IMG/VR virus record: IMGVR_UViG_3300033489_000049 | Coordinates: 1 to 28,169 of that record | DNA: 28,169 nucleotides | Source: a virus | Taxonomy: Duplodnaviria; Caudoviricetes | Direction: 5' to 3' (one strand) | Part shown: positions 1,233 to 25,391 of the stretch, piece by piece | Layout of the letters: the number at the start of each line of letters is the position of its first letter | Position numbering within the stretch: position 1 is the first letter of the stretch | Notes under the pieces: generated by a model | Database searches by the model: none | Told to the model about the DNA's origin: nothing | The model's input: only the letters and a program-made list of their open reading frames with translations | Made by a program: the position numbers and the translations under genes

Positions 1233-1273
1233 TTTTTCTCCGTGCCTTTCCGTGAAAAATCCGTGGTAATTTT

Positions 1274-2200
1274 TTAAGTGAACGCGAGAGACAGCTCATC
1301 GTCTCCGCTGTCCCGCCTCAGGATAGCGCCGATCTCAGCAACCGCATTGCCGTTGCGGCTTCCCGGGGACAGCTTGCCGTACTGGATCTTTGGAGCGGTG
1401 ATCGTGCAAATGTTTCCGGCTGCTGAACCGACAACGGCGGACAGGGCTACTAAATCCCCGGACTCCCAGTCGTCCCAGAAATCGTGTGTAGCCAGCAATA
1501 CATCTTCGGGATTTAAGCTTAATGTTGCCATACGTTTTGTTATGTTCGCGCTCAAATAGCCCTGTATTGAGTTTGCGCTATCACGCAGCGCCAGGGCGTT
1601 TCCGCTGCCGATGACCATCGCCTCGATAATGGCGGCATAGCTGTTGATCGTAAAGTTCGCATTCTGAAACGCTTTGGCAACCGACGACTGATAAGAAACA
1701 CTGCTGAGCAATGCCACGTCGGAATCGGCGACGGATGTGCCGATAAAATCAAACGAAATAATGCCCGGCTTACCGGAATTTAAGTTTAAGGTGAAGTTCC
1801 CCCGGGCGCCAGCCATGAGGTAGCGTTTGCCATCCAGATAATGGGCCATTGTCAGCGATGGAATGCCTGAGGAGGCCGGAAGATACGTCACACTGGTACT
1901 CGCCACAACCGTGTCATCATAGCCGCAGGCTTGTAACAGTTTGCCGATCTCCGGCGCTGTCCCGGCCGCGCCTGAGCCCTTGAACGGGCACTTAAATGTC
2001 AATTTCGCCATACGGTGGCCTGGGATACCGGAAAACGGGCTGAGAGAACTACTGGACAAGTTGAGCTCCTCGATGCTGATATCCGGATCGAATTTAATTT
2101 CTGCCGCCAGTACCGCGTCGGCCGCGGCCAGAGCTTCGGCAGTGCCTTCCACTGATTCAATTTTTGCGGCCAGTTGAGACCGCGCTTCTACTAACGGCAT
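1274..2200 (-). CDS. Tail tube (major tail) protein, non-contractile type
   Basis: 308 aa, Ala/Gly/Ser rich; begins 'LAAKIES', ends 'GDDELSLAFT'; no sheath gene upstream; followed by G/GT chaperones. Confidence 0.8.
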   Translation of the reverse strand: MPLVEARSQLAAKIESVEGTAEALAAADAVLAAEIKFDPDISIEELNLSSSSLSPFSGIPGHRMAKLTFKCPFKGSGAAGTAPEIGKLLQACGYDDTVVASTSVTYLPASSGIPSLTMAHYLDGKRYLMAGARGNFTLNLNSGKPGIISFDFIGTSVADSDVALLSSVSYQSSVAKAFQNANFTINSYAAIIEAMVIGSGNALALRDSANSIQGYLSANITKRMATLSLNPEDVLLATHDFWDDWESGDLVALSAVVGSAAGNICTITAPKIQYGKLSPGSRNGNAVAEIGAILRRDSGDDELSLAFT

Positions 2201-2243
2201 AAGGTTTCTCCCTTGAAGCGTTAAGAACGTTTAAATGGTTTGT

Positions 2244-2696
2244 TCAGTAATTATCCAATGTGCCGCTTGAATTATCCGACGACTTTCCACGGCTGAAAAT
2301 GCGATCGCTTTTCGATGTACTGACTGCCACGCCGTAATCTGCGCCCGCATCCGGATCCGGCACATCCAAACTCATGGTTCCTTTTGCGATCCGGTCCAGG
2401 TCTTTGCGTATTCTCTCGCAGATTTCTTTCCGGGTTTCGGTAATGGTATCATACCGCCGGGCGTACAGATTGCATATGGCCAGATCCACAGCCATTTTCC
2501 GGACCAGATTCGGCGTTACAGCAAAGGGCAGGCTGTACTTCACGGCCAGATAAGCATCGATTTCTTCATCTGCGTCATCGATAGCCCGGTCCAGCACATC
2601 CGTGTCCACTTCGCCGGCTTCCGCATCGTCGGTCAACTGGATGAGGGTCTCCTCATCCAGTTGTTTGGTGATATCGCTTTGAGTGCAATATGCCAT
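2244..2696 (-). CDS. Mu gp36-like head-tail adaptor (DUF1320)
   Basis: MAYCTQSD...LIQLTD...AIDDADEEIDAYL..Y.LP...LDRIAKG signature; follows the capsid gene. Confidence 0.9.
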   Translation of the reverse strand: MAYCTQSDITKQLDEETLIQLTDDAEAGEVDTDVLDRAIDDADEEIDAYLAVKYSLPFAVTPNLVRKMAVDLAICNLYARRYDTITETRKEICERIRKDLDRIAKGTMSLDVPDPDAGADYGVAVSTSKSDRIFSRGKSSDNSSGTLDNY

Positions 2697-2738
2697 TGCC
2701 TATTCCTCCGGCCTTCAGTCTTCAGCCTTCAGCCTTTT

Positions 2739-3719: not shown

Positions 3720-3789
3720 TTTCTATATCCTCCCTGCTTTTAAAATTGAAAATTGATTATTTTCTCGTTTCCCTTTTTACTTCCTTCAG

Positions 3790-3830
3790 CCTGCCCCGTT
3801 AAACCAGCTTTTTCTTTTGTTTAACTGGGG
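3790..3830. repeat. 41-42 bp REP-like hairpin CCTG-CCCCGTTAAAC-N14/15-GTTTAACYGGGG, copy 1 (others 17938-17978, 18548-18589, 20707-20747)
   Basis: Four near-identical copies in the same orientation, read directly. Confidence 0.9.
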
Positions 3831-3858
3831 TCTTCAGCCTTCAGTCTTGTTCACTTTT

Positions 3859-4257: not shown

Positions 4258-4319
4258 TTCATTTTCTCCTTACTTTAGCCGTTTGAATCGCTTGAACCGC
4301 CTGAACCGTCTTGAGCAGT

Positions 4320-4934
4320 TTAAGCCATTATTTCCTGTTGATACTCCTTCGCCAAATCCGGATGCTCCCGCTGAACTTCGGTAAAGGCTGCAGAATATCC
4401 GAGATCCTTATTCTCTTTCCGTTTTGCCGTGATCAGTGCTTCGATCTTTACGGTCGCATTGCCGGCGGCCGCCGCCCCGTCGCGAGTCGCCACTTCCCTA
4501 AATTCGATCACCTTCGGCAGCACGGTTTCAAACAACCCCTTGAACCGGTCAAACAGGGTGGCCTTTTCTTTCGTTTCGCCGAACTCGATGACGTCTTCTT
4601 TCTCCGCAAATGCGGAAAGCATTTCAGGTACGCCGTATTTGATCATGGCAGGGGTCATTTTGCCTGCCTTGACCTGAGTATCACACCATGCCGATATCTC
4701 TTTTTTACGCGCATCCTGGCGTGCAAGGCGCTGGGATTCAGCAAATTCCGCCGTTACCTTTTCCCGCTCCTTTTTGGCGGCTTCTTCGGCTGCCTGTTTT
4801 TTTGCGGACTCGATATCTGCCTCCGAAAATTTCAAATCTGAACTTTGAGATTTGAAATTTTCACCCGGCCCGTCATCCGGCATTTTTCCGATTAGTTCGC
4901 TGAAAAACGCTGTGAGTTTTTCCTTGAAAGTCAT
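4320..4934 (-). CDS. Nested in-frame scaffold protein (Mu Z-like)
   Basis: AAGGAGG RBS before internal ATG (MTFKEK) at 4934; charged helical sequence downstream. Confidence 0.6.
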   Translation of the reverse strand: MTFKEKLTAFFSELIGKMPDDGPGENFKSQSSDLKFSEADIESAKKQAAEEAAKKEREKVTAEFAESQRLARQDARKKEISAWCDTQVKAGKMTPAMIKYGVPEMLSAFAEKEDVIEFGETKEKATLFDRFKGLFETVLPKVIEFREVATRDGAAAAGNATVKIEALITAKRKENKDLGYSAAFTEVQREHPDLAKEYQQEIMA

Positions 4935-5603
4935 ATCTTTACCCTCCTTGCTTTTGTTTTGGCGCTCGGCAACGGAAAATTTCAAATTTGAGATTTGAGA
5001 TTTGAAATTTCCATTAATTGCCTCAACGCCGGTTGTTTCGGTTGGCCGGTTAGCCACTTCGCCTATATACGTTACATCCCAGTCCGGGATGATGGCGTCT
5101 GCTTTTTCCGTTCCTTCTTTTTCGATCAGATAATCTCGCAGCTTCCGGAACATCCGGGCGATGGCGCTAAGACCTTCCTCGTAAAAATAAAAATTCTCTT
5201 CTTTCTCATCAAAGCCGATATCAGCCAGGCCTTTTATGGCAGGGGGCGTAGCGCCCAGAAATCCCACATGCCGCAAACGGCCGTCCGGATAAAACGAGGC
5301 AGATCTCTTTTTGTACATGCCATTTTTCACCAGGTCCTCGAATTCCGGGACCACCTGCCTGAATTTCGCATACAAGACTTTTGCACCGTCAACGACCGCC
5401 TCCTTGAGATTTTCGACCCATCCGAAGGCGGGCGCGTTTTCTTTTGGGTGGCCTACCACCACGGGCGGCTCATGGTGTTTTAGGTTGAAGGTGGAGATGG
5501 CGCGGTCAATCAGCAAATCGCCATCATGGATTCGGCCCTCACTGTCTGTCTGTTTTCCGCCTCGAAAAATCTCGATCCAGTCTCCAAATCCTTTAAAATC
5601 CAT
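4320..5603 (-). CDS. Mu I-like capsid protease with C-terminal scaffold
   Basis: WIEIFRGG, PPVVVGHP, PAFGWV, YKKRSAS, LRHVGFLGATPPAIKGL. Start moved to ATG 5603 (GGAGGG RBS). Confidence 0.9.
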   Translation of the reverse strand: MDFKGFGDWIEIFRGGKQTDSEGRIHDGDLLIDRAISTFNLKHHEPPVVVGHPKENAPAFGWVENLKEAVVDGAKVLYAKFRQVVPEFEDLVKNGMYKKRSASFYPDGRLRHVGFLGATPPAIKGLADIGFDEKEENFYFYEEGLSAIARMFRKLRDYLIEKEGTEKADAIIPDWDVTYIGEVANRPTETTGVEAINGNFKSQISNLKFSVAERQNKSKEGKDMTFKEKLTAFFSELIGKMPDDGPGENFKSQSSDLKFSEADIESAKKQAAEEAAKKEREKVTAEFAESQRLARQDARKKEISAWCDTQVKAGKMTPAMIKYGVPEMLSAFAEKEDVIEFGETKEKATLFDRFKGLFETVLPKVIEFREVATRDGAAAAGNATVKIEALITAKRKENKDLGYSAAFTEVQREHPDLAKEYQQEIMA

Positions 5604-5653: not shown

Positions 5654-5726
5654 TAACCGCAAATACACGCTAATATACGCCAATGGTTTTTCCTAATTTG
5701 CGTTCATTCGCGTTCATTCGCGGTTA
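5654..5726. repeat. ~72-bp hairpin of 3x10-mer arms (AACCGCGAATACACGCGAATATACGCTAAT / ATTTGCGTTCATTCGCGTTCATTCGCGGTT); other copies 12096-12186, 19639-19710, 23163-23234; solo arms 12041-12070, 14511-14542
   Basis: Direct sequence comparison of copies. Confidence 0.9.
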
Positions 5727-6250: not shown

Positions 6251-6256
6251 CTTTTC

Positions 6257-6322
6257 ACCACGGATTCACACGGAAAAAATCACAGATATTTTTTCAGTGA
6301 AAACTCCGTGGATTTCCGTGGT
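6257..6322. repeat. Hairpin of 3x TCCGTG 10/11-mer arms; solo arms at 1239-1269, 21794-21825, 22405-22437
   Basis: ACCACGGATTCACACGGAAAAAATCACAGA ... TCAGTGAAAACTCCGTGGATTTCCGTGGT. Confidence 0.85.
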
Positions 6323-6335
6323 AAATTTTTATCCT

Positions 6336-7694: not shown

Positions 7695-9204
7695 CAAATC
7701 TCCCGGATAAATCGGCCAAAGTAAAGGCCTTTTGCATGAGATCCCCCAAAGAGGATGTGTCCATGTCTCCATATAGTTCCAGCAATCGGTCTCGGAATTC
7801 CTCTATGGAACTGACCGAAGACAGCAGCTTTTCAACCGGCGCCATAAGGTCGTCAATGGATGCGCTTTCCAGCGTTTTTTCTGATAGGGCATCCAGCGTA
7901 TCCGCCGGAGACGGGTCTGCCGCTTCCGCAAACTCCCTGCCCGTATTGGGTACTGGATATTGGGTATCTGCTGCCTGATACCTGGCCACTACAACCTCCT
8001 CCCCCTCTTCGGGTTCCGGGATATTGTAGGTTTCATAAAAATATTGTTTCGAGATGGGCACACCAATTCTGGTCAATATCTCATCCCGTTCAGCCAGAGG
8101 CTTCAGATCTCCCTCTTCCTTTGTCCTGACCCATAATTTCGGATAGTCCGAAACATCTGGAAAGTTGTAATCCACGATCCATTTCACCAGGGTATCGTTT
8201 AAACATTCACACAACAGATCCGCATCGGCTTTGAGAACATCTTCCCGGACATCGTTATGCGTCTGGCTTGCCGCATAAGATCCTTCTCCCTTAACTTCCG
8301 TTGTCAGCGTCTGGCCCAGGACGGCTTTGGATATCTGCCGGTCCATGTAGTCGCAAAGTGTCTCATAAGATACATGCCCCTGTCTGGCAGCTTCCAGTAA
8401 CTCGATAGCCATGTTTTCCGGAATGATAATGCCCGTCTCTTGGTGAATCGCTTCGAGGGCGTTGAGCAGCTTTGCCTGCTCAGCCGGATCGGCGCCGGGC
8501 GGGTACTTCCCCACGCCTGTGGGTCCCCCAAACTTTTCCAGGAAAACCAGCCAGAATTTAATGCCGTTTTTCTTGAACCATACCGGCCACCAGAGCTTTT
8601 GCCCCAGTCCCGAACCGTAAGGGTTGTCGCTGGAACCATAGGTAAAAACGATGAACTTACGGTCTGGCACCGGCTCTCCGTCGATCATATTGTTTAGTGT
8701 AAGCAGCCGAAGCTCCCGGTCCATCGTAAAAACAAATCTCCTGGGATGTTTGGCCCGAATCTTTTGCGGGATCACATATCCTGAAACCACCTGCCATAGG
8801 ATTTCCGCCACATAAAACCCATACAAAATCCCCTGCAATAATTCCTGCCGGAACTGGTCGAAATTTATATTCACCAATACTTCCCGGACAAAATCGGCAA
8901 TTGCCTGCGCCCTTTCTTCAGTCCCCGCCTTTCCCGCTTTTCCCGCTTTTCCCGCTTTTTCCTGTCCTGGCAACACTTCCCACTCTTTCCCGGTAACCGC
9001 CAGATACCGGGTTTGAAGCACCGCGCCCGCATGGGCATCCCGGTCTACTTCATCGTAAAGTTTCAATCCCTTGCCGGACGCTTCCGTGCGCAAAACCGGA
9101 TCAGGATTCTCCAGCCGTTTCAGCCATCCGGCAAAGATATCCAGGTCTTTGGATGTGGTTGCGATCTCATCAGTAACCGGTTTTTTTATGTTTTTTCCCG
9201 CCAT
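7678..9204 (-). CDS. Portal protein (Mu gp29/DUF935)
   Basis: NPYGSGL...WWPVWFK...FLEKFG.P, ISKAVLGQTLTT, GSYAASQTHNDVR. Confidence 0.93.
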   Translation of the reverse strand: MAGKNIKKPVTDEIATTSKDLDIFAGWLKRLENPDPVLRTEASGKGLKLYDEVDRDAHAGAVLQTRYLAVTGKEWEVLPGQEKAGKAGKAGKAGTEERAQAIADFVREVLVNINFDQFRQELLQGILYGFYVAEILWQVVSGYVIPQKIRAKHPRRFVFTMDRELRLLTLNNMIDGEPVPDRKFIVFTYGSSDNPYGSGLGQKLWWPVWFKKNGIKFWLVFLEKFGGPTGVGKYPPGADPAEQAKLLNALEAIHQETGIIIPENMAIELLEAARQGHVSYETLCDYMDRQISKAVLGQTLTTEVKGEGSYAASQTHNDVREDVLKADADLLCECLNDTLVKWIVDYNFPDVSDYPKLWVRTKEEGDLKPLAERDEILTRIGVPISKQYFYETYNIPEPEEGEEVVVARYQAADTQYPVPNTGREFAEAADPSPADTLDALSEKTLESASIDDLMAPVEKLLSSVSSIEEFRDRLLELYGDMDTSSLGDLMQKAFTLADLSGRFDAKER

Positions 9205-9298
9205 CCCTTTATCCTTCTAAAACCGTTTGAACCGTTTGAACGGCTTGAACTGTTTTTCCCGTCTTTCCCGCTTTTCTCGCTTTTCTCGCTTGCCGTTC

Positions 9299-10717
9299 TT
9301 AAGCCCCCATATAATTTCCTATCCGGGTGAAATTTCGCTTGCGTCCTGTGGATTGATATTCAATAACCCCCGCGGGCCTGCTGCCCGCATGAATAGCCAA
9401 AGCCAGCGCCCAAAATCTGTCCGCATGGCCGCCAGGTCCGTGATCCGCATCAAACCGGATATTGCCCGCGGCCGTTGTGGTTTTCCGGATGCTGCGCAGA
9501 TCCGCCCGGATCTGATCATCTCTCGGGATCCGGATGGCTTTGTCCTCGAATGCCGCCCGCACCGGGTAGGCCAACTCTTCTTTGACCGGGCCGGTAAACC
9601 GCACCGGCTCAACTTTGTAGCTGCCAAACCGCTCAACCGCTCGCTCGGCAAATTGCATACCCAGGCCTGTATCGTCGATGCAGCACCGTCTCAATCCGGG
9701 CATTGCCAGCAATGGCCAAAGCGCTGCTTCCTGTGCGCTGAACGTCTCTCCCTGGTATGTCCAAAGCCCCCGGGTGAAAAACACGCCTGAAACGCGCTCC
9801 AGGAGCCAAAACACTGTTAAATCATTCTGCCGCCCAACATCCACCCCCAGATATAATTCTTTGGTCTGTGTTTGTCTGTGTGGGTCTGTGGCTAATTTCC
9901 ATTGCTCGTCATGCCTATACTCGCATGAGGCGATCAGGTCGTAAGACAGAAACGCCCCTGCATCGTCTGCCGGAATGCACATATATTCCTGCGCAAATTG
10001 TTCTGAGCTCGCGCACCCTTTCCGGATGTAATCGAAGTACTCGGCCTCATCCATCTCCTGGATGGGATCGTCTTTGGGAAATACCTGCTGCAATTTATAT
10101 AAAAAACCCTGATCTAGGGCGTTTTGCAGAGTAACCGTATGAAGGGAAAAGCCCATCGGGTTGCCCCGGTGCTTTACGTCCTCGCAGATCTCGTTGAAAA
10201 AGTTTACGCTTCCCCTGTGCGTGCTGATGATTTCCAGTTGACCGCCCCAGGTAATCCCGGGATAAGCGATGCTGTATAATTTGCGCGGATCGGGATGAAG
10301 GGCAAACTCATCGAGGATGCGTCCGCCTTTCTTTCCGGACTGCGCGTCGGGGTTGCTGCTCATGCTATGAATTCTTAAACCATTTGCAAATTCCAGCACA
10401 TAAGCGGAAAATTTTTTCTCTTCGTCGATGATCACGGCCCCCAAATCTTTGGCTGCCACATTAAGCATCCGGGCAAAGCGTTTGCAATCTTCCAAGAAAA
10501 GTCGCGCCTGGATGTCATCCCGGCTGCTCACCCATTGCTCATTCCGGGCATCCCTGGGAGCAGTGCGTTCTACCGCACCGTAGGCTGTCCCCCAGGAGAT
10601 TCCGATCTGGCGGCTTTTTTCCATCAGCTTCAACCGGTGATCGTCATCGATCCACCGCTGCTGATAGGGCAGAAAAACCTTGTCGGATCTTTCCGGTATG
10701 ATTTTCGCTTTTCCCAC
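9299..10717 (-). CDS. Terminase large subunit (Mu gp28-like)
   Basis: FLPYQQRW, EKSRQIGISW, ILDEFA, QEYMC, LGVDVGR, HADRFWALALA. Confidence 0.95.
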   Translation of the reverse strand: MGKAKIIPERSDKVFLPYQQRWIDDDHRLKLMEKSRQIGISWGTAYGAVERTAPRDARNEQWVSSRDDIQARLFLEDCKRFARMLNVAAKDLGAVIIDEEKKFSAYVLEFANGLRIHSMSSNPDAQSGKKGGRILDEFALHPDPRKLYSIAYPGITWGGQLEIISTHRGSVNFFNEICEDVKHRGNPMGFSLHTVTLQNALDQGFLYKLQQVFPKDDPIQEMDEAEYFDYIRKGCASSEQFAQEYMCIPADDAGAFLSYDLIASCEYRHDEQWKLATDPHRQTQTKELYLGVDVGRQNDLTVFWLLERVSGVFFTRGLWTYQGETFSAQEAALWPLLAMPGLRRCCIDDTGLGMQFAERAVERFGSYKVEPVRFTGPVKEELAYPVRAAFEDKAIRIPRDDQIRADLRSIRKTTTAAGNIRFDADHGPGGHADRFWALALAIHAGSRPAGVIEYQSTGRKRNFTRIGNYMGA

Positions 10718-10735
10718 TTTCTTGCCTTTCCCTTT

Positions 10736-10763
10736 GTATGGGCGAATAATTATTCGCCCCTAC
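10736..10763. repeat. GTAG-family REP palindrome
   Basis: GTATGGGCGAATAATTATTCGCCCCTAC, a near-perfect palindrome that supplies the small-terminase stop codon. Confidence 0.75.
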
Positions 10764-11393: not shown

Positions 11394-11431
11394 TTTTCTG
11401 ACCTCCGGCCTCTGACCTCTGACCTCTGGCA

Positions 11432-11992: not shown

Positions 11993-12201
11993 GCGCTATT
12001 TCCTTTTTTTCGGTTTAAACCGCTTAAACGGTTTTTCCTTTTTGCGTTCATTCGCGTTCATTCGCGGTTACTTTTTTCTCGCCTTTCCCTCTACCAACCG
12101 CGAATACACGCTAATATACGCAAATAATGTATCTTTTTTATTCTTCTTTTATCCCATTCGCGTTTATTGGCGTTCATTCGCGGTTACTTTTTTCTCGCCT
12201 T

Positions 12202-12726: not shown

Positions 12727-12839
12727 TTGTACTTCCTTCTACCTTCATTATTTCTCGCCCTTCTCGCCTTTCCCGCCTTTCTAACTACTCCTACTACCTC
12801 ATAAACCCTTCATTTACCTGCATTCCGTCAATGTACTTT

Positions 12840-14485: not shown

Positions 14486-14541
14486 CGGTCCGCCCCTTAA
14501 TCCCTTCTTTTCATTCGCATTCATTAGCGTTCATTAGCGGT

Positions 14542-14736
14542 TCACACCATCTCAATCGTTTCTTCCACCCGCTCCTGAATATCCCGGAGCCAGATCTCGA
14601 TGTCTTCACGTTGCTGGGTCGGTTTCTCCCCGGTCGGATTGATCAGAAACAACACCGCGCCCAACATGCCACGCAGACGCATGAGATTGTCCGTAATCGC
14701 GTCCCTCCGTTCAAAATTGTCCATCTCGTTTTTCAT
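14542..14736 (-). CDS. Hypothetical protein
   Basis: MKNEMDNF...; GGAGG RBS; overlaps the rha stop. Confidence 0.6.
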   Translation of the reverse strand: MKNEMDNFERRDAITDNLMRLRGMLGAVLFLINPTGEKPTQQREDIEIWLRDIQERVEETIEMV

Positions 14737-15443: not shown

Positions 15444-15485
15444 TTTGTGCCTCCTTGTTGGTTAGTGGTTTCGCCGGATGTGAGC

Positions 15486-15678: not shown

Positions 15679-15679
15679 G

Positions 15680-16000: not shown

Positions 16001-16087
16001 TATTCCTTATTTCCTTTTCCCCATCCCTGTGATACGGGGTTTTTATCGCCAGATATCAACCCCATACCACAAAGGAGGTGATGCAAA

Positions 16088-16264
16088 ATGGATGACAAGC
16101 AAGCCCTCATGGTAATAGCCAAAGATCTACTCGTTGCGGCAATGCAATCAAAAAACATCGGTCATTTTAGCGCCAGAGATAACGCGGATAGTGTCGCTAA
16201 AATGGGTGAGCTGCATGCAGCACTGACAAAGATCCTCGCAGAAACACTCAAATCTCTCGAATAG
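16088..16264 (+). CDS. Small counter-oriented protein (58 aa)
   Basis: AAAGGAGGTG RBS; MDDKQALMVIAKDLLVAAMQ...ILAETLKSLE*; below the ORF-track cutoff. Confidence 0.7.
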   Translation: MDDKQALMVIAKDLLVAAMQSKNIGHFSARDNADSVAKMGELHAALTKILAETLKSLE

Positions 16265-16268
16265 CGCC

Positions 16269-16424
16269 CTAAACGTACTTAAGCTCAAAGCGCACACAAA
16301 GGAGGCTGGCAACGGTATGCAGCGTCTCGAATTCGAATCCGCTGGCCTCCGCCTTAATCGTTTCCGCAATTTTCAGGGCAAGCGCGGCCCTTTCCGTAAG
16401 TGTCAATGTCTTTTCTTTTTCCAT
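16269..16424 (-). CDS. Small hypothetical protein
   Basis: MEKEKTLTLTERAALALKIAE...; convergent with the 58-aa ORF. Confidence 0.5.
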   Translation of the reverse strand: MEKEKTLTLTERAALALKIAETIKAEASGFEFETLHTVASLLCVRFELKYV

Positions 16425-16599
16425 TTGCTTTTTCCCCGTCCTCAAATCCATGTTTATACCCATGCTGAAATTCTTCCCGTGCGATCTGTTCAACGATCGG
16501 CGACAGCAGACCCACCAGCCAAGTCGCGTGCGCCCCACCCAGCCGCTTCGCCGTTTCCTGCCAGGATTCATCCTTCGATGTCCGATGTTCAGCGTTCAT
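16354..16599 (-). CDS. Hypothetical protein
   Basis: MNAEHRTSKDESWQ...EEFQHGYKHGFEDG; GAGGTG RBS. Confidence 0.55.
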   Translation of the reverse strand: MNAEHRTSKDESWQETAKRLGGAHATWLVGLLSPIVEQIAREEFQHGYKHGFEDGEKANGKRKDIDTYGKGRACPENCGND

Positions 16600-17395: not shown

Positions 17396-18179
17396 AACCT
17401 TCCACTCCGAGCATCGGTACCGGATGGCGGATAAGCCGGTCGTTAACGGCGATATGGGCATCCAGCACCAGCCTGGCGTTGCCGATAATCTGCGAGGCCA
17501 CATGACTGATCGTTTTTGCCCGGATAATTTCCTTGCTAAAGGCATCTCCGGAGAGGTTATCGCTGGACAGCCGCTCCATCTGATCGAACAGATAATCGTT
17601 TAAATCCGCCAGCTTGTTTTTAATCCCCGAACCTCCTATGTCAGGCTTTTTTGTGTTACCGTTATTTTTCGCTTCTTCATTGTTCGATGTTGGATGTTCG
17701 GTATTCGATATTCGACATTCGTCTTTTTCTTTTTCGCTGCTCACTGATAACGGCTCACTGCTCACTTTCTTCCCCTGATCCCTGTCTTTTTTCGGTTCAT
17801 ACCTGGTCCACGGATATTTCTCGATGCAATCCTCACAGCTTTTCAGCCGTTTGGCCTTTTTTATTGTGCCAAAAGGGAATTTCTCTATCGGCTTCACATG
17901 CCTACAGATGTTACATCTCCGCTCCTTTTCCTCCAGGCTTGCCCCGTTAAACCCGGTTTTGCTTTTGTTTAACTGGGGTCCCTCGTCCATCATCCCTCGT
18001 CCCTCAATATTCATCCCCGCATTTCCCGCAAGCATAATTCCCTCCGGTACACTGTGCGTCATGCCCCCCAAGGCCTCCACATATGCCCACCGTTTCTCGC
18101 ATTTCCGGCAGGTCTCGTTCCCCTTATCCTCATGCAGCAATTCACACGACAAACACGGATTTTTTAGTTCAACTGCCAT
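17379..18179 (-). CDS. Cys-rich hypothetical protein with C-terminal helical phage domain
   Basis: Four CxxC pairs; C-terminal KNKLADLNDYLFDQMERL...EIIRAK; several repeat-derived inserts. Confidence 0.7.
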   Translation of the reverse strand: MAVELKNPCLSCELLHEDKGNETCRKCEKRWAYVEALGGMTHSVPEGIMLAGNAGMNIEGRGMMDEGPQLNKSKTGFNGASLEEKERRCNICRHVKPIEKFPFGTIKKAKRLKSCEDCIEKYPWTRYEPKKDRDQGKKVSSEPLSVSSEKEKDECRISNTEHPTSNNEEAKNNGNTKKPDIGGSGIKNKLADLNDYLFDQMERLSSDNLSGDAFSKEIIRAKTISHVASQIIGNARLVLDAHIAVNDRLIRHPVPMLGVEGYDEKE

Positions 18180-18239
18180 TTTTACCTTCACTCGCGCAGA
18201 GGCGCAGAGAAATGTTTAAGTTTTTTCTTCTCCCTTCCT

Positions 18240-18827
18240 TCAGTCTTCAGTCTTCTCTCGCAGGGTGGGACTGTCACCTTCAGTCTTCAGCCTTCTACCT
18301 TCAGTCTTTCTTGCCTCAATCTTTTTCATAGCCTCGATCACCTGGTGCGCCTTCTCAAACGTGAGAAAATTCTCATGATCCACCCGGAACCGTTTTTTCA
18401 AAAATCCCCGCAGGGCAGGAAGGGCTTTGCCTTTATCATAATACCCCGCCGGCATCGAATACCACAGCGCATAAATCTTTTTAACCTGTCCATCCGTCGC
18501 CATCCCCGGCCGGTTCTGCTCTTCCTGGCTCTGATATTTTTTCTCCGCCTGCCCCGTTAAACCCGTTTTTGTGTTTTGTTTAACCGGGGCGCCCTCTGCG
18601 CCTCCGCGGTGAGCGACCTTTTCCCGCATTTCCCGCTTTTCTCGCGTTTCCCATTGGAACCCACTCTCTTCAAAATGCTTCACCACCGCCAGATACCCGG
18701 CGTAGCTCAAATCCCGCGAACTCTTAACCCCGCCGTGCGCCAGCAAAATATCCCTGTAGGTATCCTCATCCAGCCCAAGCTGAGACTTTGCTATATGAAC
18801 AATGGCTTTTTGTTTATTGCTGATCAT
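18240..18827 (-). CDS. gemA: Mu GemA (DUF1018) protein
   Basis: VHIAKSQLGLDEDTYRDIL...SSRDL...GF...QVKKIYALW...VIEAMKK. Confidence 0.88.
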   Translation of the reverse strand: MISNKQKAIVHIAKSQLGLDEDTYRDILLAHGGVKSSRDLSYAGYLAVVKHFEESGFQWETREKREMREKVAHRGGAEGAPVKQNTKTGLTGQAEKKYQSQEEQNRPGMATDGQVKKIYALWYSMPAGYYDKGKALPALRGFLKKRFRVDHENFLTFEKAHQVIEAMKKIEARKTEGRRLKTEGDSPTLREKTED

Positions 18828-18905
18828 ATCTATTATCTTTCACCACAGAGACCACAGAGGTCACAGAGAAAAACATTTTAATTAATTGTCTGTGTTTGTC
18901 TGTGG

Positions 18906-19616
18906 CTAAAAAATATTTTTTACCAACAGTTGCAACCGTTCCGCCTGCGCCGCGATCTCCGCCACCCGCGCCCGCGGCAGCAAAATAGACCCGTATTTCT
19001 GCCCTATTTTTCTTAAACCATCTGCAAATTTCTCCGGATCTTTGCTCATCCGCTCCAGAAAAGCGTCCACCACTTCTATCGGCGCGGGATCTCCCACCCG
19101 TCTTTTAATCGGCCCCGTATAATCCGTTTTATCCACCAGATCCTCAAACTCAAACGTGAGCTGCTCCACCATTTCTACCATCGCGGCCTTCTTCCCGCGC
19201 GAAGCCTTGACCAGCCCGGTCATGCCTCTCGCCCGGAATGTTGCGTAAAACTCGTCGGCCTCTTCTTTGCTCTCCGCAATCCAATACCCCCCGCCGGTAC
19301 CGGCCTTGGAAAGCAAAGGTACGTGATCGTGCTTGACGAGGATATGATTATGTAAATACCTGATTTCCCGCTTAAGCCCGTCGATCATATAAGGATGCTC
19401 TTTGCATTGATTGAGATAAACAGGGATATTCTCCTCCAGCAGCCCGATATCTCCATTTGCAACGGCAAACCTTACCGCCAGCTCGTCGGCGGCAATCGCA
19501 TTCTCCGGCCCCACATGATCCTCCCAGAGAATCCCGACAAACGCGCTTTCCACGGTGGTCAAATGCTTATCGTGAACACCTGTCTTTAGGTTGAATCCCA
19601 GATCTTCGAGTTTCAT
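18906..19616 (-). CDS. Hypothetical protein, possible winged HTH
   Basis: HVGPENAIAADELA...GGYWIAES. Confidence 0.7.
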   Translation of the reverse strand: MKLEDLGFNLKTGVHDKHLTTVESAFVGILWEDHVGPENAIAADELAVRFAVANGDIGLLEENIPVYLNQCKEHPYMIDGLKREIRYLHNHILVKHDHVPLLSKAGTGGGYWIAESKEEADEFYATFRARGMTGLVKASRGKKAAMVEMVEQLTFEFEDLVDKTDYTGPIKRRVGDPAPIEVVDAFLERMSKDPEKFADGLRKIGQKYGSILLPRARVAEIAAQAERLQLLVKNIF

Positions 19617-19731
19617 ACTTTCTCGCCTTCCCCGATACTAACCGCGAATAAACGCGAATATACGCTAATGGTTTTTTTTGATTTGCGTTCATTCGCGTTC
19701 ATTCGCGGTTCCTTTTTTCTCGCCTTCCCCG

Positions 19732-19950
19732 TTAAATCTTTCCGTCGGTAACCAACTGCTCCACAGCATTTTCATATTGCCGCTCATACCCCTGACCGAT
19801 CCGGACGTACAAGCCCTCGCGCATATGTGGCGGCAGCGCATAATAGCAGTTATAGCAAAACGCAAACCCCCGCCGTTTCGTAGCCCCGCAGATGCACTCC
19901 TCACTGGCCAGTTCCTTCACATAATATTCTGTTTCAGCAATCCGGCTCAC
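19732..19950 (-). CDS. Small Cys-rich hypothetical protein
   Basis: CxC...CxxC; overlaps the upstream stop codon. Confidence 0.6.
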   Translation of the reverse strand: MSRIAETEYYVKELASEECICGATKRRGFAFCYNCYYALPPHMREGLYVRIGQGYERQYENAVEQLVTDGKI

Positions 19951-20483
19951 TTCTCATCTACCCCCAATATCCAGTTTCGATTTTCCAGTTTCCGGAAATC
20001 CTTTAACGACATCAACCCTTCATCCTTCGATGTTCGATGTTCGATGTTCGACGTTCGACGTTCAGTTCTTTTTATTTCTTCCCTTTCCATTTCTTCAGCC
20101 GCTGTCATCCCCTCAGCGCTGATCCGCTCCGAATGCTCAGTCAAAATCTTCTTGAAATAATTATGATTTTTAAATCCGAACTTATCCAGATTGCATACTA
20201 CCTGGAGCCCCGCTTTGATCGATGGTTTATCCACCCGGTATTGTTTTCCGGAATAACTATACATCCCCGTCTCCCAGAATTTGGCCAGATCGGAAAGCAG
20301 TCGCACCCGTTTTTTCAGGCTCACGTCGCTATGTTTGTCTGCCCGGAATGCGTCCACATATTCGTTTGACAGTGCCCAGATGGGAGACATCGCAGCTGCC
20401 AGCCGCACCATCTCCTCCAGCGCTGTATGGTTCAGAGCCTCATCAAAGTTAAACTTCTTTCTACAGTGAGGACAAACGATCAT
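19947..20483 (-). CDS. Hypothetical protein, Mu-like semi-essential region
   Basis: N-terminal CPHC, Y..AFR, NHNYFKKIL. Confidence 0.7.
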   Translation of the reverse strand: MIVCPHCRKKFNFDEALNHTALEEMVRLAAAMSPIWALSNEYVDAFRADKHSDVSLKKRVRLLSDLAKFWETGMYSYSGKQYRVDKPSIKAGLQVVCNLDKFGFKNHNYFKKILTEHSERISAEGMTAAEEMEREEIKRTERRTSNIEHRTSKDEGLMSLKDFRKLENRNWILGVDEK

Positions 20484-20510
20484 TTTCCCAGTTTCCAGTT
20501 TTAATTTTTC

Positions 20511-20681
20511 CTATCTCTTTTCCGCCCGCATCATCAATATATACGCCGTCGCACATGCCTCAACGCATGAGCACAGTGTGATGATGCATTGCGCATCCTC
20601 GATTTTTATTTCGTTGTCCAACGCGTCCGTATGCGCCTTCAAATCTTCAACCAACTCTTTTAACTGTTCGACGTTTTTCAT
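20511..20681 (-). CDS. Small hypothetical protein (56 aa)
   Basis: Hand-translated MKNVEQLKELVEDLK...MRAEKR*; GGAGG RBS. Confidence 0.6.
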   Translation of the reverse strand: MKNVEQLKELVEDLKAHTDALDNEIKIEDAQCIITLCSCVEACATAYILMMRAEKR

Positions 20682-20764
20682 CTTGTTTCCTCCAATTTTC
20701 CTTCAGCCTGCCCCGTTAAACCAGCCTTTTCTTTTGTTTAACTGGGGTCTATCTACCTTCAGCC

Positions 20765-21163
20765 TTATTCCCTATTGACCACACTCAAACCCGGACCGGT
20801 GTCTACATTTATCGACACGTTAACATTGACGGTTATCGGATGCAGGTTTTTCGGGGACGCAGGTGGAGTGGTGTCTATGCGATGGACTAGCTCAACAGAA
20901 TAATCGCTTTCGTTTTTATCATTATCGTACGCTTTGGCTGCAAAATAATAGATAGTGTTATCATTGAGGCCTTTAATGGTGTATTGGGTTACCTTCCCCA
21001 CATTGATTGCAGGGCTGTAGCTCCGGGATGAGATCCCGTAATATATTTTATACCCGGCCAAATCAGTCTCGGTATTGGCATCCCAGGCCAGCGTTACATC
21101 CGCCGCCTGCGCTGAAACGCCGCACAATATAATCGCAACTAATATAAATAGAATTTTTTTCAT
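20765..21163 (-). CDS. Secreted fibronectin type III domain protein
   Basis: Signal peptide MKKILFILVAIILCGVSAQA; VTLAWD..LAGYKIYYG...YTIKGL...YYFAAKAYD...ES.YS. Confidence 0.88.
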   Translation of the reverse strand: MKKILFILVAIILCGVSAQAADVTLAWDANTETDLAGYKIYYGISSRSYSPAINVGKVTQYTIKGLNDNTIYYFAAKAYDNDKNESDYSVELVHRIDTTPPASPKNLHPITVNVNVSINVDTGPGLSVVNRE

Positions 21164-21231
21164 TTTAATCTCCCCTTTCGTCATTTATTTTTAATTTTCC
21201 TGCATTGTCTTCTAACAGGTGCACACTTCCC

Positions 21232-21501
21232 TCACTCAAACCGGTTGTGATAATGAATAATATGTTGCTCAATCCGATAGAGCATTTCCCATATCGGGAT
21301 TTCATCTCGTAGATACCTGGCCACAGCCAGCCCAATTTGAATGGATAGATCTATGGCCGCATCTATGGTCTGCTGTTGGGGAGGTTTTCGACGTTTCTGT
21401 AACGATTTTTTTAATTGTATTAAGTGTGCCCATAGGATATGCAGTTGTCCTTCAACTGTGATGACTTCATCCAATAACTCATGGTTTTTATATGGCATTA
21501 C
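21232..21501 (-). CDS. Hypothetical protein
   Basis: Helical ORF in operon orientation; start uncertain. Confidence 0.45.
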   Translation of the reverse strand, partial: VMPYKNHELLDEVITVEGQLHILWAHLIQLKKSLQKRRKPPQQQTIDAAIDLSIQIGLAVARYLRDEIPIWEMLYRIEQHIIHYHNRFE

Positions 21502-21607
21502 CATAAATCCAAACAATGTATGCTATGACAATAAGTGTTGCGATAAAACATATTGAATCGAAGATGATCCGGGAGGCTATTTTTCTTTTCGTGTTTTTTG
21601 AGCCCAT
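21488..21607 (-). CDS. Small membrane peptide
   Basis: MGSKNTKRKIASRIIFDSICFIATLIVIAYIVWIYGNAI; GGAGGAG upstream. Confidence 0.5.
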   Translation of the reverse strand: MGSKNTKRKIASRIIFDSICFIATLIVIAYIVWIYGNAI

Positions 21608-21608
21608 A

Positions 21609-21788
21609 TCATCCCGTCTCCTCCTGGTTGCTCGCGGATTTTTTAATTTCGTACAATGGCAGCATCCATTTTTTGAGAGGGTATACCGCCCGCGACCCGC
21701 AACGCGGGCAATTCCCCTGAGCCAACTCCCTGCAATCGCATATTTCGTCACAATTCATACATAGATAGGCATAATTAATCTGTGTCAT
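21609..21788 (-). CDS. Small zinc-ribbon protein (59 aa)
   Basis: Hand-translated MTQINYAYLCMNCDEI...NCPRCGSRAVYPLKKW... Confidence 0.65.
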   Translation of the reverse strand: MTQINYAYLCMNCDEICDCRELAQGNCPRCGSRAVYPLKKWMLPLYEIKKSASNQEETG

Positions 21789-21789
21789 A

Positions 21790-22313
21790 TTATCCCGTGT
21801 CCTTTCCGTGAAGAATCCGTGGTGGTTTTTTGTTTTCCCTGATCCTTTTCAGCTTCTCCCGCTTCGCCTCATTCACCGGCGTATCCGGCCCAGGATCGTT
21901 AATCATCTGCCATGTATCCATCGATGTTTTTTTAATAATCCCAGCCCGTTTCAAAAACCCAAGAAACTCCAAGACCGTGGACCGTTTAGCCCCGGATAAT
22001 CTTTCGATCTCTCCGGTATCGAAAAACCGGTGGGACCGGACCAGATGCCACATGATGTCGTTGTATGTCCGGGAAGTGATATTTCTCGGCTGGTACCGGT
22101 ACCGTCCAGGCTCGATAATAACGTGCTCCCCGGTCCGCTTCATGTTGGCAAACGCTCCTTTGATTTGCATGGTGGAAAGATAGGGCGCAAAATCTTCTAT
22201 GTCCGGCAGCGTATATTCTCCAAACATCTTCGCAACTGCCCGCACCTTAAGCGTAATCGTCGGAAGCGCCGTAATATTTTTACGAATTTTCTGCTTCTCT
22301 GATTGTTTCATCA
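21790..22313 (-). CDS. Putative DNA-binding protein with tandem wHTH-like regions
   Basis: MWHLVR...F...EIERLSGAKRSTVLEFL..L..AG.I...W.MINDPGP; follows MuB. Confidence 0.65.
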
Positions 22314-22399
22314 TCTCTCGCCGCCACACATAGCCCTAAAATGATTATGCCGACATTTGCCCCAATAAAAACCCCTATAAAAAACGCAACCCAAATCAT
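22280..22399 (-). CDS. Small hydrophobic protein (39 aa)
   Basis: MIWVAFFIGVFIGANVGIIILGLCVAARD... Confidence 0.55.
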   Translation of the reverse strand: MIWVAFFIGVFIGANVGIIILGLCVAARDDETIREAENS

Positions 22400-22437
22400 T
22401 TTATTCCGTGCCCTTTCCGTGATAAATCCGTGGTAAA

Positions 22438-23136
22438 TTATTTCCCACGGAGTCCTTGTTTGATCGCCATCCGCACCAGATCATCGCTGATTTTATCAGG
22501 TTTATTCACGGCGATCATGTCTTCAAGCCGACGGACATCTCTGGCGACCAGCCGGAAGTCCCCGTCAGAAGCCTCCCGGATCATTTCTCCCTGGTTAGCG
22601 GTCAGCGCCAGATCGGCCGCCTGCTTGGCAAAGAACAGAATGTCGGTTGTGGTGATTGGCCCGAACTCCACGCACTGATGCGTCCGGCTCCATATCCTTT
22701 TTTCTTTTTCCATTTTGTGCCGGATCAGGAGCTCTCCCACCAGGGCAAATGGCGTAAGAGAAACATCGGCCAGGTCCCGAATCCAGTCCAGGAGCGTTTC
22801 GGAGAGTTTATCCGCCTCATCCACGACTACTGTACGACCGGTGGATAGCAGAGTTCTTTTTATAGCCTCAAACGCCGGTTTCTTACGTCCGGGAATGGGA
22901 TCAACGCCCAACTCAAAGCAAAAATCCTGGAGCATCCATAATTCGGTCCAGCCCCGCAGCGCCCGGACGTAGCACCATCCCTCCTGTGCCGCAAAAAACC
23001 TAGCTGCGGACGTTTTTCCCCGGCCCGCCTGCCCGTAAAATACCAGCAACGCAGGCTCGGATTTGATCTTCTCCGCCTCCCGCATAGGAGCGATAAAATT
23101 CTTTACATTCTGCGTATGAACAAACACGTTTTTCAT
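22438..23136 (-). CDS. muB: MuB-like AAA+ transposition ATPase
   Basis: Walker A GQAGRGKT, Walker B VVVDEAD, WSR, GDFR; downstream of the transposase. Confidence 0.93.
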   Translation of the reverse strand: MKNVFVHTQNVKNFIAPMREAEKIKSEPALLVFYGQAGRGKTSAARFFAAQEGWCYVRALRGWTELWMLQDFCFELGVDPIPGRKKPAFEAIKRTLLSTGRTVVVDEADKLSETLLDWIRDLADVSLTPFALVGELLIRHKMEKEKRIWSRTHQCVEFGPITTTDILFFAKQAADLALTANQGEMIREASDGDFRLVARDVRRLEDMIAVNKPDKISDDLVRMAIKQGLRGK

Positions 23137-23276
23137 ATTTCAAATTTCCAGTTTCCAGCTATTAACCGCGAACACACGCGAATATACGCTAATGATTTCT
23201 TCTAATTTGCGTTCATTAGCGTTCATTCGCGGTTCCTTTTCACTTTTCTCGCTTTTCTCGCTTTTTTCATCAGCCT

Positions 23277-25391
23277 TCAGCCTTTTTCAATTTCAATCGG
23301 CCCAACAATATAAATCTCCCTCAAAAACTCAAACCGATCCTTAAATTCTCTATATCCAGACGTGTTTTCGTAGTACCGCATGAACGACATACCATCCAAG
23401 TCCATCTCTATCCCCTTGCATTCCTTCTCCAGTAAAGCTTCATACCGGTCCGCCTCACTCAAATATACCGGAGCCTTGGGCTTGAATTCAATCACCGTCA
23501 TTTTTGCCGCTGCCGCCTCTATCCGCTCAGCTTCCGCCCTGGGTAGTTCAATCCGTTTACTCGTGTTTTTCGTGGTTTTCGTGGTTAAAACTTCTGTGAC
23601 CTCTGACCTCTGACACCCGACCTCTATCAGAGCCGGCGCATCAGCCACCCACGCCCTGGCTTCAGCTTCCGTCTGTTTCGCCAGCGACCTCTTGAGCCTA
23701 ATCCCTTCCTTAACCGCCGCCAGATCCTCCGGCTGACCGAGTAGCCTGGCCATCGGATGCACTGGCGTAAGCGCTTTGGCTTCGCAAAGCAGTTTTTTCC
23801 CGGTTTGATCATACACGTGCACCTGGCTAAGGTCTTCCAGATCATACCGGATCATCACCCGGTCCCGGTATCCATACAGAGACTCATCGTAGTACCACCG
23901 GCCCATAAAATTAACGCCGTTGCGCTGCACTGTCTTGATTTCCATACTCATCATCAGGTACCGCAACGTCTCCTCGTTAACGCCAGGCCCTTTGCCCGCG
24001 GCGAAAATTTCACCAGGCTGAAGGCCTTTCAATCCCCGGTGCGGACGCTGCGCGTACTCGTTTACCCATCCTTTGATAATCCGGTGAGTGTCATCGATGG
24101 TCGGCATCCATCCGCCATATTTTTTCTCGTGAAGTTTCTGATGAAGTTTTTCATTGCGAAGCATTCGGGCAGGTTTATCGTCTATGGACGTGCCGGTAAA
24201 TGTCGGCATCAGCCGTTCGAGCTCGGAAAACGTTCCAAAGAACCGCTCCACCGGCTTGCTTTGCGCATGATACGGCCAGGCAAACACCGTTTCAATCCCC
24301 AGCCGGGCGAACATCCCGTAAAATCCGGCTTCCTCGAAATCGATGTCCGTATTGGTGAAAAGTTTGGCTTTGAAAGCCCTACCGTTGTCCAGATACGCCA
24401 CTTTCGGCATTTTACCCAGGGTAAGGATTGCTTTCCGAAGCCCGGCGGCGACGCATTGAATGTTTTCCGTGGGCAGGATCTCCCAGCCCACGGGCATGCA
24501 GGATGCCCAGTCGTACCAGGTAACCATCGTCATCCGGGACGGTTTGCCGGTAAACGGATGAAGCGCGACAAAATTCAGCGTGTGCCCGTCGGCCACCAGA
24601 ACATCGCCCACCTCCAGGAGATTGATATCCCGGTCCATATAGGGCAACACTTTATCGTTGAGCGCCTTCTCTCCCTCGCGCGCGAATACCCATTGGTCGT
24701 AATGCGCTTTTCTAAAATCCTTTAGCGCTCTTCGTAGTGTGTCTTTTGAGGATGGCGACGGGATTTGCTTCCGGGTCAGCGCGGTCTTGGTTAGGCGGGC
24801 AACCTCTGCGATCCGGAGGCGGTTGGGGTGGAGAGCGAAAGACAGCATGGCGTTGAATTCGTCGTCGGTAACCTTCCTCTGTCCCAGGCGGTTGCCATAC
24901 TGCGGCGCCAGCGCCATGTAATCGTAATGGCTGTCCCGAAATTTCTTGGCCCATGCGTCCAGGGTCTGCCGGGAGGTGTTCCCCAATACGCTATATATAA
25001 TAGGTAGCAACTGCCCCGTGTTGTATCCTCTCACAAACAAACCGGCCGCAGCGACCACCGATTCTTTTTTAGCCCTGGCCTCATCTTTTGAGACCTGATA
25101 ATGCCGGATCAAATCCGCCCGCGCCAGGGCGACCTTATTCTGCTGCTCGCTCAATTCCGGCGATCCCACCGCCACGGGTGCTTCTTTTTCTGCCAATACC
25201 GGATACCGAATACCTGATACCTGCAACCGCACTCCCTCCGGGAGGTCGGCCAGCAAATACCGTTTTGCATTGCCGTCTCCGTTTAAATAGGGCCACGCTT
25301 CTTTTTCTGCCCGGAGATTAACCGCACGTTTCGTTATACCTATTATATTAGCCAGCTCGGCTGCGGTTTTGGTTTCAGGTTCCAGATTCAT
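23277..25391 (-). CDS. muA: MuA-like DDE transposase
   Basis: N-terminal HTH, VADGH, YLDNGRAF, SKPVERFF, C-terminal IRYD..DL..V.VY. Confidence 0.95.
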   Translation of the reverse strand: MNLEPETKTAAELANIIGITKRAVNLRAEKEAWPYLNGDGNAKRYLLADLPEGVRLQVSGIRYPVLAEKEAPVAVGSPELSEQQNKVALARADLIRHYQVSKDEARAKKESVVAAAGLFVRGYNTGQLLPIIYSVLGNTSRQTLDAWAKKFRDSHYDYMALAPQYGNRLGQRKVTDDEFNAMLSFALHPNRLRIAEVARLTKTALTRKQIPSPSSKDTLRRALKDFRKAHYDQWVFAREGEKALNDKVLPYMDRDINLLEVGDVLVADGHTLNFVALHPFTGKPSRMTMVTWYDWASCMPVGWEILPTENIQCVAAGLRKAILTLGKMPKVAYLDNGRAFKAKLFTNTDIDFEEAGFYGMFARLGIETVFAWPYHAQSKPVERFFGTFSELERLMPTFTGTSIDDKPARMLRNEKLHQKLHEKKYGGWMPTIDDTHRIIKGWVNEYAQRPHRGLKGLQPGEIFAAGKGPGVNEETLRYLMMSMEIKTVQRNGVNFMGRWYYDESLYGYRDRVMIRYDLEDLSQVHVYDQTGKKLLCEAKALTPVHPMARLLGQPEDLAAVKEGIRLKRSLAKQTEAEARAWVADAPALIEVGCQRSEVTEVLTTKTTKNTSKRIELPRAEAERIEAAAAKMTVIEFKPKAPVYLSEADRYEALLEKECKGIEMDLDGMSFMRYYENTSGYREFKDRFEFLREIYIVGPIEIEKG

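Follow-up and report, generated by a model that had tools for sequence, protein, structure and literature searches.

The virus record IMGVR_UViG_3300033489_000049 (Caudoviricetes) is 28169 bp long and was taken whole; this stretch is called the window below. PHROG matches among its 41 scanned open reading frames (ORFs) mark it as a Mu-like phage, with the MuA transposase at 23277-25391, MuB at 22438-23136, and a terminase, portal, protease, major head protein and repressor among the other matches. The minus strand carries nearly every gene. The left end lies within the tail region, so most tail genes are absent and the record is partial. Between and within these genes lie many small blocks of tandemly repeated words of 7, 9 or 10 nt, and the origin of these repeat blocks is the subject of this analysis.

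An assembly artefact can be ruled out. The record occurs complete in soil metagenome runs, which may be its origin. Contigs from the likely source run are identical to the record over thousands of bases (0 differences), and a second assembly shows 1 difference in 11723 bases. At the right end, the second assembly diverges in the final bases. TTCCCAC words in both orientations stand near that end (27790-27900 and 28163-28169) and are possibly transposase binding sites.

Census of the repeat blocks

A period scan kept runs scoring at least 9, dropped low-complexity runs, and was set against 40 order-4 Markov nulls. It finds 11 arrays of period 7, 9 of period 9 and 9 of period 10, where the null means are 0.15-0.23 and the maximum is 2. 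The block counts thus stand far above a composition-matched null, and the three periods named in the original prediction are borne out. Periods 4, 5, 6, 8, 11, 13, 15-17, 19 and 20 give 0-1 arrays each, period 12 gives 3, and 14 and 18 are harmonics. Tandem Repeats Finder (TRF) agrees with the period scan. The 7-mer arrays span 2-5.9 units. Phase-variable simple sequence repeats, which are long near-perfect tracts of 1-6-nt units, do not fit, as periods 4-6 are at null level and arrays have fewer than six units.

The unit families first proposed were recovered by a family scan at, or a few bases from, their expected positions. CCTTCAG recurs at 2711, 3832, 18237, 18277 and 23270, TGACCTC at 11397 and 23597, TTCGATG at 16574, 17681 and 20026, and TTTCCAG at 19970, 20488 and 23138. 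Among the longer units, GAACCGTTT lies at 4279 and 9221, TTTTCTCGC at 8926, 9254, 12751, 18618 and 23243, CACAGAG/CGCAGAG at 18194, 18593 and 18842, and TGTCTGTG at 9864 and 18886, while GCGTTCATTC has six forward matches and one reverse. Three blocks are weak or variant: block 2214 scores 7-8, block 20700 consists of two lone units parted by a nested hairpin (score 10-11), and block 12012 matches only the variant unit AAACCGTTT (score 16). Spacer length is uneven in the TCCGTG blocks (1239, 21795 and 22404); these are picked up by a three-core motif, which matches 15 times in the record versus 0.34 times in the null.

A catalogue of 44 blocks was drawn up by hand from TRF, the period scan, the family scan and the three-core motif. 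Gene junctions lie within 50 nt of 31/44 blocks, compared with 13.4 under random placement (maximum 23 in 2000 draws). The claim that most gene junctions are occupied holds narrowly (22/40 overall, 22/35 within 1239..25223), but 13/44 blocks lie within coding regions. Blocks sit between core genes: the accessory stretch 13260-16260 holds only one, and there is none to the right of 25400. Six stretches form two-armed hairpins (5654-5726, 6254-6325, 12096-12185, 18840-18908, 19640-19710 and 23164-23234). Different families are stacked side by side, as had been described, at 9221-9291, 12009-12200 and 23131-23284. Chance or base composition as the source of the blocks is ruled out by the Markov nulls, the family scan, and the motif and placement tests. 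Stop codons in three frames were also rejected as the cause of three units, since several words have no stop on the mRNA strand; host arms outside genes have three cores too.

The catalogued stretches are listed below with their strand (minus, or none assigned) and, in brackets, how they were detected.

1239..1270, minus: three-core CACGGA arm (GxxExxY-type), unpaired (motif scan)
2214..2244, minus: degenerate 9-mer block, weak (score 7-8)
2711..2736, minus: 7-mer CTGAAGG array, unpaired, at the capsid-adaptor junction (period and family scans)
3742..3756, minus: 7-mer AAAATTG (plus strand), 2 units (TRF, family scan)
3782..3848, minus: CTGAAGG 7-mer array broken by a nested 45-bp hairpin at about 3789-3831 (family scan)
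4279..4309, minus: 9-mer GGTTCAAAC array (period and family scans)
4827..4862, none: self-complementary 7-mer (TTTGAAA/TTTCAAA), in frame in the protease gene (family scan)
4975..5010, none: second self-complementary 7-mer block, protease gene (period scan)
5654..5726, none: 10-mer (CGCGAATGAA) two-armed hairpin
6254..6325, none: CACGGA two-armed hairpin
8924..8959, minus: four 9-mer AAAAGCGGG units within a variable loop of the portal protein, in frame (period scan)
9221..9291, minus: two stacked 9-mer arrays at the terminase-portal junction (period and family scans)
9864..9893, minus: three-core CACAGAC arm, in frame in the large terminase (family scan, motif)
11397..11428, minus: 7-mer CAGAGGT array (period and family scans)
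12009..12200, none: stack of a 9-mer variant, an unpaired 10-mer arm (12041-12070), a 10-mer hairpin (12096-12185) and single 9-mer units
12751..12782, minus: 9-mer array, with GTAG-type hairpins here in a ~93% relative (period scan)
14510..14544, minus: 10-mer arm, unpaired (period and family scans)
16574..16590, minus: 7-mer CATCGAA array (family scan)
17681..17766, minus: two 7-mer arrays (CGAATAT/CATCGAA; GTGAGCA) within ORF 17379-18176 (period and family scans)
17934..18005, minus: GAGGGAC 7-mer array with a nested 45-bp hairpin directly beside it, in frame (period scan)
18190..18308, minus: CGCAGAG arm (reverse sense) and two CTGAAG arrays, 3' end of ORF 18240-18827 (family scan)
18545..18650, minus: ORF 18240-18827 holds, each in frame, a nested hairpin, a CGCAGAG arm and a 9-mer array (family scan)
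18840..18908, none: hybrid hairpin, a CACAGAG arm pairing with a TCTGTG arm
19640..19710, none: 10-mer two-armed hairpin
19970..20063, minus: CTGGAAA and CATCGAA arrays, in frame in ORF 19947-20483 (family scan)
20488..20501, minus: 7-mer CTGGAAA, 2 units (family scan)
20700..20765, minus: CTGAAGG units parted by a nested hairpin
21795..21825, minus: three-core CACGGA arm at a gene end (motif)
22404..22436, minus: three-core CACGGA arm directly past the MuB stop codon (motif)
23131..23284, none: 140-bp MuA-MuB spacer of stacked blocks (two 7-mer arrays, a 9-mer array and a 10-mer hairpin)
23561..23625, minus: MuA C-terminal linker, with a CCACGAA arm and a CAGAGGT array in frame (period scan)
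25196..25223, minus: MuA N-terminal linker, with an in-frame 7-mer CAGGTAT array (period scan)

An extra 7-mer run, GGGTATT-like, lies outside the catalogue in the portal C-terminal region (7945-7975, score 19).

Matching sites in related phages

For comparison, 88 loci of relatives were retrieved via MuA and the capsid protein, and 22 via MuB. The MuA-MuB junction holds 140 bp of stacked blocks here. It is an ATGA overlap in 7/9 distinct close relatives (L001=L287, L002, L004, L286, L293, L294, L297) and holds other elements in the remaining two (L284, L285). This count requires MuA directly before MuB, and it excludes copies of the record itself, loci with an intervening gene, and three loci at 25-29% MuA identity with plain 24-55-nt gaps. 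Just past the MuB stop codon, an array is present in 8/16 relatives, with differing words, versus 1/112 control windows inside MuB. Five head-gene junctions are all filled in the record; the relatives have arrays there in 9/64, 6/48, 4/63, 1/27 and 2/29 cases. Three junctions measure at most 40 nt in 21/64, 21/27 and 22/29 relatives.

Orthologous linkers within genes also bear different words. In ORF 19947-20483, the second-site linker has the record's word in one orthologue and other repeat-like segments in others; for L002, the comparison at two in-gene sites rests on protein alignment. At 12737-12816, short contigs of a ~93%-identical relative end in GTAG-type hairpins and not in the 9-mer array (depth 2-5 in one sample, X3 and X4 being the same).

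Pairs of phages that are 78-90% identical yielded 22 listed length differences having a periodic side. Clean insertions among them are 33 nt long for one in-frame single arm, 52 nt for a 7-mer hairpin and 65 nt where an arm is joined by a hairpin. Such insertions come from pairs at 80-90% identity (L017/L020, L023/L026, and L034 and L036 versus L043), and whole arrays appear at sites with no visible seed. In the pairs L081/L082 and L070/L074 unit number alone differs: slippage alters the number of units after an array has arrived.

The load differs greatly between phages. After 11 duplicates of the 88 loci were dropped, 77 loci held 232 arrays, or 2.3 per 10 kb, compared with 10.3 in the record. 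The distribution is uneven (dispersion 3.7), and each heavily loaded phage has its own words. One related phage, L003 (5380-12030), has 18 7-mer arrays in 14 kb, nearly all of one word family and in one orientation; its arrays reach ~15 units.

The 10-mer family points to copying from templates. Each of its six 5' arms and four 3' arms is built of three cores with position-specific spacers, and the arms have a TTHRCC-like outer end in common. Three other viral contigs carry this arm at gene junctions, oriented alike on the mRNA; a fourth match is the record itself. Next to the arm, ~15-20 nt of 9-mer sequence are common to four of the six 5' arms, which suggests some copying between junctions of the phage itself.

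One model for the blocks requires no dedicated enzyme. Chance seeds would grow by slippage of 7-10-nt units and spread between junctions by ectopic gene conversion, with small genes beside such repeats in bacteria hitch-hiking in permissive gaps. The changes in unit number between close phages, the 2-5.9 units of the 7-mer arrays and the 9-mer sequence shared by neighbouring arms, as conversion tracts would leave it, all agree with this model; mismatch repair also falls for loops >3 nt, according to the available part of PMC4060949. However, enrichment is limited to periods 7, 9 and 10 and is missing at 5, 6, 8 and 11. Entire arrays arise where no seed is visible, and three-core arms of fixed build are found again in other viral contigs and a bacterial genome. 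The model is unlikely. Local slippage alone is insufficient because the 10-mer arms are fixed templates shared between loci, and relatives' sites are empty or hold other words, in line with the original prediction.

Repeat words beside host genes and on the mRNA strand

The nearest MuA proteins in named genomes are 54-64% identical and lie in two Desulfobacteraceae metagenome-assembled genomes (MAGs) and one Deltaproteobacteria MAG. Because of these relatives, the likely hosts are placed in the Desulfobacterota. In the family of G003, a Desulfobacteraceae MAG, taken as the likely host family, TIGR02436 (four-helix-bundle) is over its cut-off in 38/41 genomes and TIGR04256 (GxxExxY) in 30/41. 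The flanks of 38 four-helix-bundle and 32 GxxExxY genes were inspected, mostly the best match per genome.

In these host cassettes the four-helix-bundle gene sits between complementary arms, mostly of 7-9-mers. Six words of the record are tied to one gene or the other: CTGAAGG, CAGAGG and AAAATTG occur in the flanks of four-helix-bundle genes, CCACGAA and CACAGAG in those of GxxExxY genes, and the 10-mer CGCGAATGAA occurs in 1/41 genomes (G037). There, 4/5 matches surround a GxxExxY/PDDEXK_3 gene, and the copies form three gene-less hairpins around it. PDDEXK_3 is listed with function unknown in the accessible portion of PMC3424549. The three-core motif is found in 23/32 GxxExxY flanks versus 1/38 four-helix-bundle flanks; this sorting by gene family is a further point against growth by slippage.

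Neither gene had been seen in the window, and TIGR02436 and TIGR04256 have no profile hidden Markov model (HMM) match in the partial record or in the 77 phage loci, with a positive control run. Any machinery would therefore act in trans. In a host sample of 1.42 Mb from 11 genomes, the five genomes having 0-1 four-helix-bundle matches show 0-0.5 7-mer arrays per 100 kb, and the six having 8-18 such matches show 1.5-15. Array density is 89 per 100 kb in the phage, compared with at most 26 in any host sample examined.

The blocks also have a polarity. Among 25 arrays scored as unpaired, 20 are purine-rich on the mRNA and 2 pyrimidine-rich, much as had been proposed for solo blocks. In paired blocks, the 5' arm is G-rich in 12/12 phage and 7/9 host cases, and the 3' arm C-rich in 8/8 and 6/8. 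The intergenic single arms of the record are like 5' arms, with 12/13 G-rich and one tied. Same-family unpaired arrays agree in mRNA orientation in 14:0 pairs in the record; for same-family single arms the ratio is 109:6 in other phages and 21:4 in hosts. Host single arms have no significant A/T skew. Retention of the 5' arm is 12:0 here, but it is no strict rule, since L008, L061 and L029 retain the 3' arm. A dictionary of 5' and 3' arms was dropped as too noisy. In another related phage, L013, arms in outward order (C-rich first, G-rich second) surround ~230 nt at 1938-2200.

Terminator-like sites in 8000-26500 overlap blocks in 5/41 cases, all of them in the non-coding strand. The polarity would be explained by selection against a stem plus U-run in the mRNA; alternately, transcription-coupled insertion may be its cause.

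In another model the phage keeps the blocks for a function, either to mark RNA for processing or translation, or to serve recombination as handles in gene shuffling. The uniform orientation and the 31 blocks at junctions would suit such a role. Folding favours the mRNA strand by 2.7-6.3 kcal/mol in five 10-mer-type hairpins, and a related stem, that of the intervening sequence (IVS), is cut out by RNase III (PMC4990558, in the text available). The folding bias, however, occurs in only one of the other 8 hairpins folded, and four of the five biased hairpins are copies of one master. Junctions are bare in many relatives, words turn over within ~7% divergence, and blocks avoid the accessory region. 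Recombination between co-oriented blocks standing between core genes would be expected to delete those genes. Both roles had been suggested in the original prediction, and both now look improbable. Joints between distant blocks do occur in run contigs, but have short sides or extra letters and are likely from other organisms; they were not used as evidence for recombination.

A third model is RNA-templated writing. An Avd-like four-helix-bundle protein would recruit a reverse transcriptase (or SOS polymerase) encoded elsewhere, and repeat cDNA would be written into transcribed DNA. PF05635 resembles Avd, the partner of the reverse transcriptase of diversity-generating retroelements (DGRs), as far as the accessible text of PMC10053308 goes. 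Such writing would yield single arms, strand bias and overwriting; of the intergenic unpaired arrays, the 12 with a G/C skew all resemble 5' arms in being G-rich, and in-frame arrays often replace sequence rather than add to it. In addition, 10/70 cassette loci (L107, L114, L128, L129, L132, L135, L136, L138, L140, L141) adjoin imuB-like, lexA or polymerase III alpha genes. Against the model, L008, L061 and L029 keep the opposite arm, and close pairs show insertion, not replacement. No reverse transcriptase was found among the 129 neighbours of the 70 cassette loci or the 41 record proteins scanned. The neighbours include no Y1_Tnp either, so the co-occurrence with reverse transcriptase or REP-associated tyrosine transposase (RAYT) genes that had been put forward as a check is not seen at these loci. 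Taken as a whole, RNA-templated writing has little probability. The neighbourhood of SOS-type mutagenesis operons may reflect hot spots for cassettes or shared ancestry. Five other cassette loci lie between gmd and fcl-like genes.

A probable origin and its known counterparts

The blocks are probably selfish mini-elements of the host, gene-less arms or hairpins that were likely copied in trans from outside, edited by slippage and filtered by selection. The process would start with the repeat families that bacteria also have beside their four-helix-bundle and GxxExxY genes, and these families would supply the templates. While the phage was resident in a host, arms would be copied into it, and the likely agents are the same host genes, working in trans. 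Either the GxxExxY nuclease-fold protein or the Avd-like protein, the latter together with a partner, might recognise its own word, cut, and let a copy be pasted; this role of the two proteins is suggested by their association with the words. Some copying would also occur between junctions of the phage itself. Selection would then retain insertions that fall between a stop codon and a ribosome-binding site, or in frame in variable linkers, and in the orientation that keeps a stem plus U-run out of the mRNA.

Several observations weigh against a host origin by way of these genes. The tie to the two gene families had been part of the original prediction, and it stands for six words but not for the others. 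In a strict scan, 9/16 tested units have no match in the 70 flanks (the 10-mer, tied separately, is among them). CATCGAA has either gene within 300 nt in 0/27 loci. The GGTTCAA 9-mer has an exact three-unit match in 1/301 genomes, with neither gene within 300 nt (0/1), and for the AAAAGCGRG 9-mer the 301 genomes give no match of three units. Both the record and the flanks had been seen before the three-core motif was drawn, and the gene-rich host chunks came from contigs known to hold the genes. G004 has 4.8 8-mer arrays per 100 kb with no TIGR02436 match, and G040 has 8 genes yet 5 arrays in 200 kb. The true host is itself only inferred. As to polarity, 95:1 of the orientation pairs from other phages come from one phage on two overlapping loci, a classifier of 5' and 3' arms gave 31:26 for intergenic arrays, and A-richness equals that of the flanking background (47:20 vs 186:59). 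For the arrays, no target duplication or common insertion sequence was seen, the close-pair insertions being judged by eye. Finally, the in-frame arrays of terminase and MuA add little net length relative to distant orthologues, and therefore overwriting or later trimming must be assumed.

A bolder version can be stated, although it is doubtful. The four-helix-bundle (Avd-like) and GxxExxY proteins would together be a word-specific repeat-writing machine, which uses an RNA or single-stranded template and pastes 7-10-nt words in trans into DNA that is transcribed, resident prophages included. Phages would then record the hosts they had passed through, and the arrays would breed a hyperparasitic hairpin.

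The blocks bear on the origin of bacterial 7-11-nt tandem repeats and on what two very common orphan protein families do. Repeats of this kind reach mobile DNA, where they are denser than in the host samples examined, and arrays add peptide segments to portal, terminase and transposase proteins. Compact, conserved phage operons give clean empty, filled and swapped versions of a site, which allow insertions to be timed and tested with a small reporter.

The blocks work like miniature elements of the repetitive extragenic palindromic (REP) or short tandemly repeated repetitive (STRR) type, yet differ from each in its defining features. Elhai et al. 2008 reportedly described STRR of cyanobacteria, in which small dispersed repeats are nested. 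The precise insertion of small hairpins into heptamer arrays is said to mark STRR, and arrays here take such a hairpin of 45 bp.

This 45-bp imperfect hairpin has four copies (3789-3831, 17936-17980, 18547-18590 and 20705-20750), each abutting an array. The family occurs in 22/41 host-family genomes and was not found in the related phage loci. Excising it restores a periodic run at 14/33 sites, compared with 12% of 1056 swapped controls. A G stands immediately before it at 28/33 sites, and no target-site duplication is seen in the 33 sites. By these sequence features, the hairpin is a second element, which inserts into arrays after G without target duplication. RAYT was rejected as its mover, as the hairpin lies beside 0/24 Y1_Tnp loci in 4 genomes.

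The heptamer repeats of Xanthomonas and Nostoc, in the part of PMC4692102 available, are likewise few-unit intergenic 7-mers near stop codons. They often form convergent inverted pairs, and related species are filled at different sites. Unlike them, one 28-kb phage record here holds more than ten words of 7-10 nt, mostly as single arms in one orientation, with 13/44 in frame. The same part of that source reports no heptamers on plasmids and gives no source for them.

REP elements and their hairpin-forming pairs (REPINs), with RAYT, are also very small, non-autonomous repeats that lie downstream of stop codons and at times in frame, and a candidate enzyme gene is flanked by its own repeats (PMC3733652, in its accessible text), as at the G037 GxxExxY locus. 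The arms here are tandem words, unlike the single GTAG-/CGTC-tagged palindrome of REP, and the flanked gene is PDDEXK_3 or four-helix-bundle, not Y1_Tnp (0/129 cassette neighbours). Only one hairpin is GTAG-tagged and REP-like, at 10735-10764 on the junction of ORF 10760-11332 and the large terminase.

The 23S rRNA IVS with S23p has a four-helix-bundle gene between complementary arms, as the host cassettes do (PMC4990558, same portion). The record differs in having no rRNA, no such ORF, and mostly single arms. The Avd family of DGRs is related to the four-helix-bundle genes beside these words (PMC10053308, as above); the record and cassettes differ from DGRs in that neither a reverse transcriptase nor a template/variable repeat pair was found among the 41 record proteins and 129 cassette neighbours. 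Compared with miniature inverted-repeat transposable elements (MITEs), terminal inverted repeats occur only in the six two-armed hairpins, most blocks being single arms, and target-site duplication is absent at the 33 nested-hairpin sites and, by eye, at the close-pair insertions. The four-helix-bundle and GxxExxY cassettes share the six words with the record, but their cargo gene is absent from it and from the 77 phage loci. In the literature covered, with most subscription journals and supplements outside it, no text links these repeats to either gene and none places them in phages; no name in print turned up for the repeat arms of the cassettes.

Two further features lie in the window. The Rfam family sRNA-Xcc1, the only Rfam match, lies upstream of a Rha-like gene at 15478-15563 (66 bits). 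A dCTP-deaminase-like gene with a coiled, membrane-ending C-terminus lies at 13389-14237, within the nearly block-free accessory stretch.

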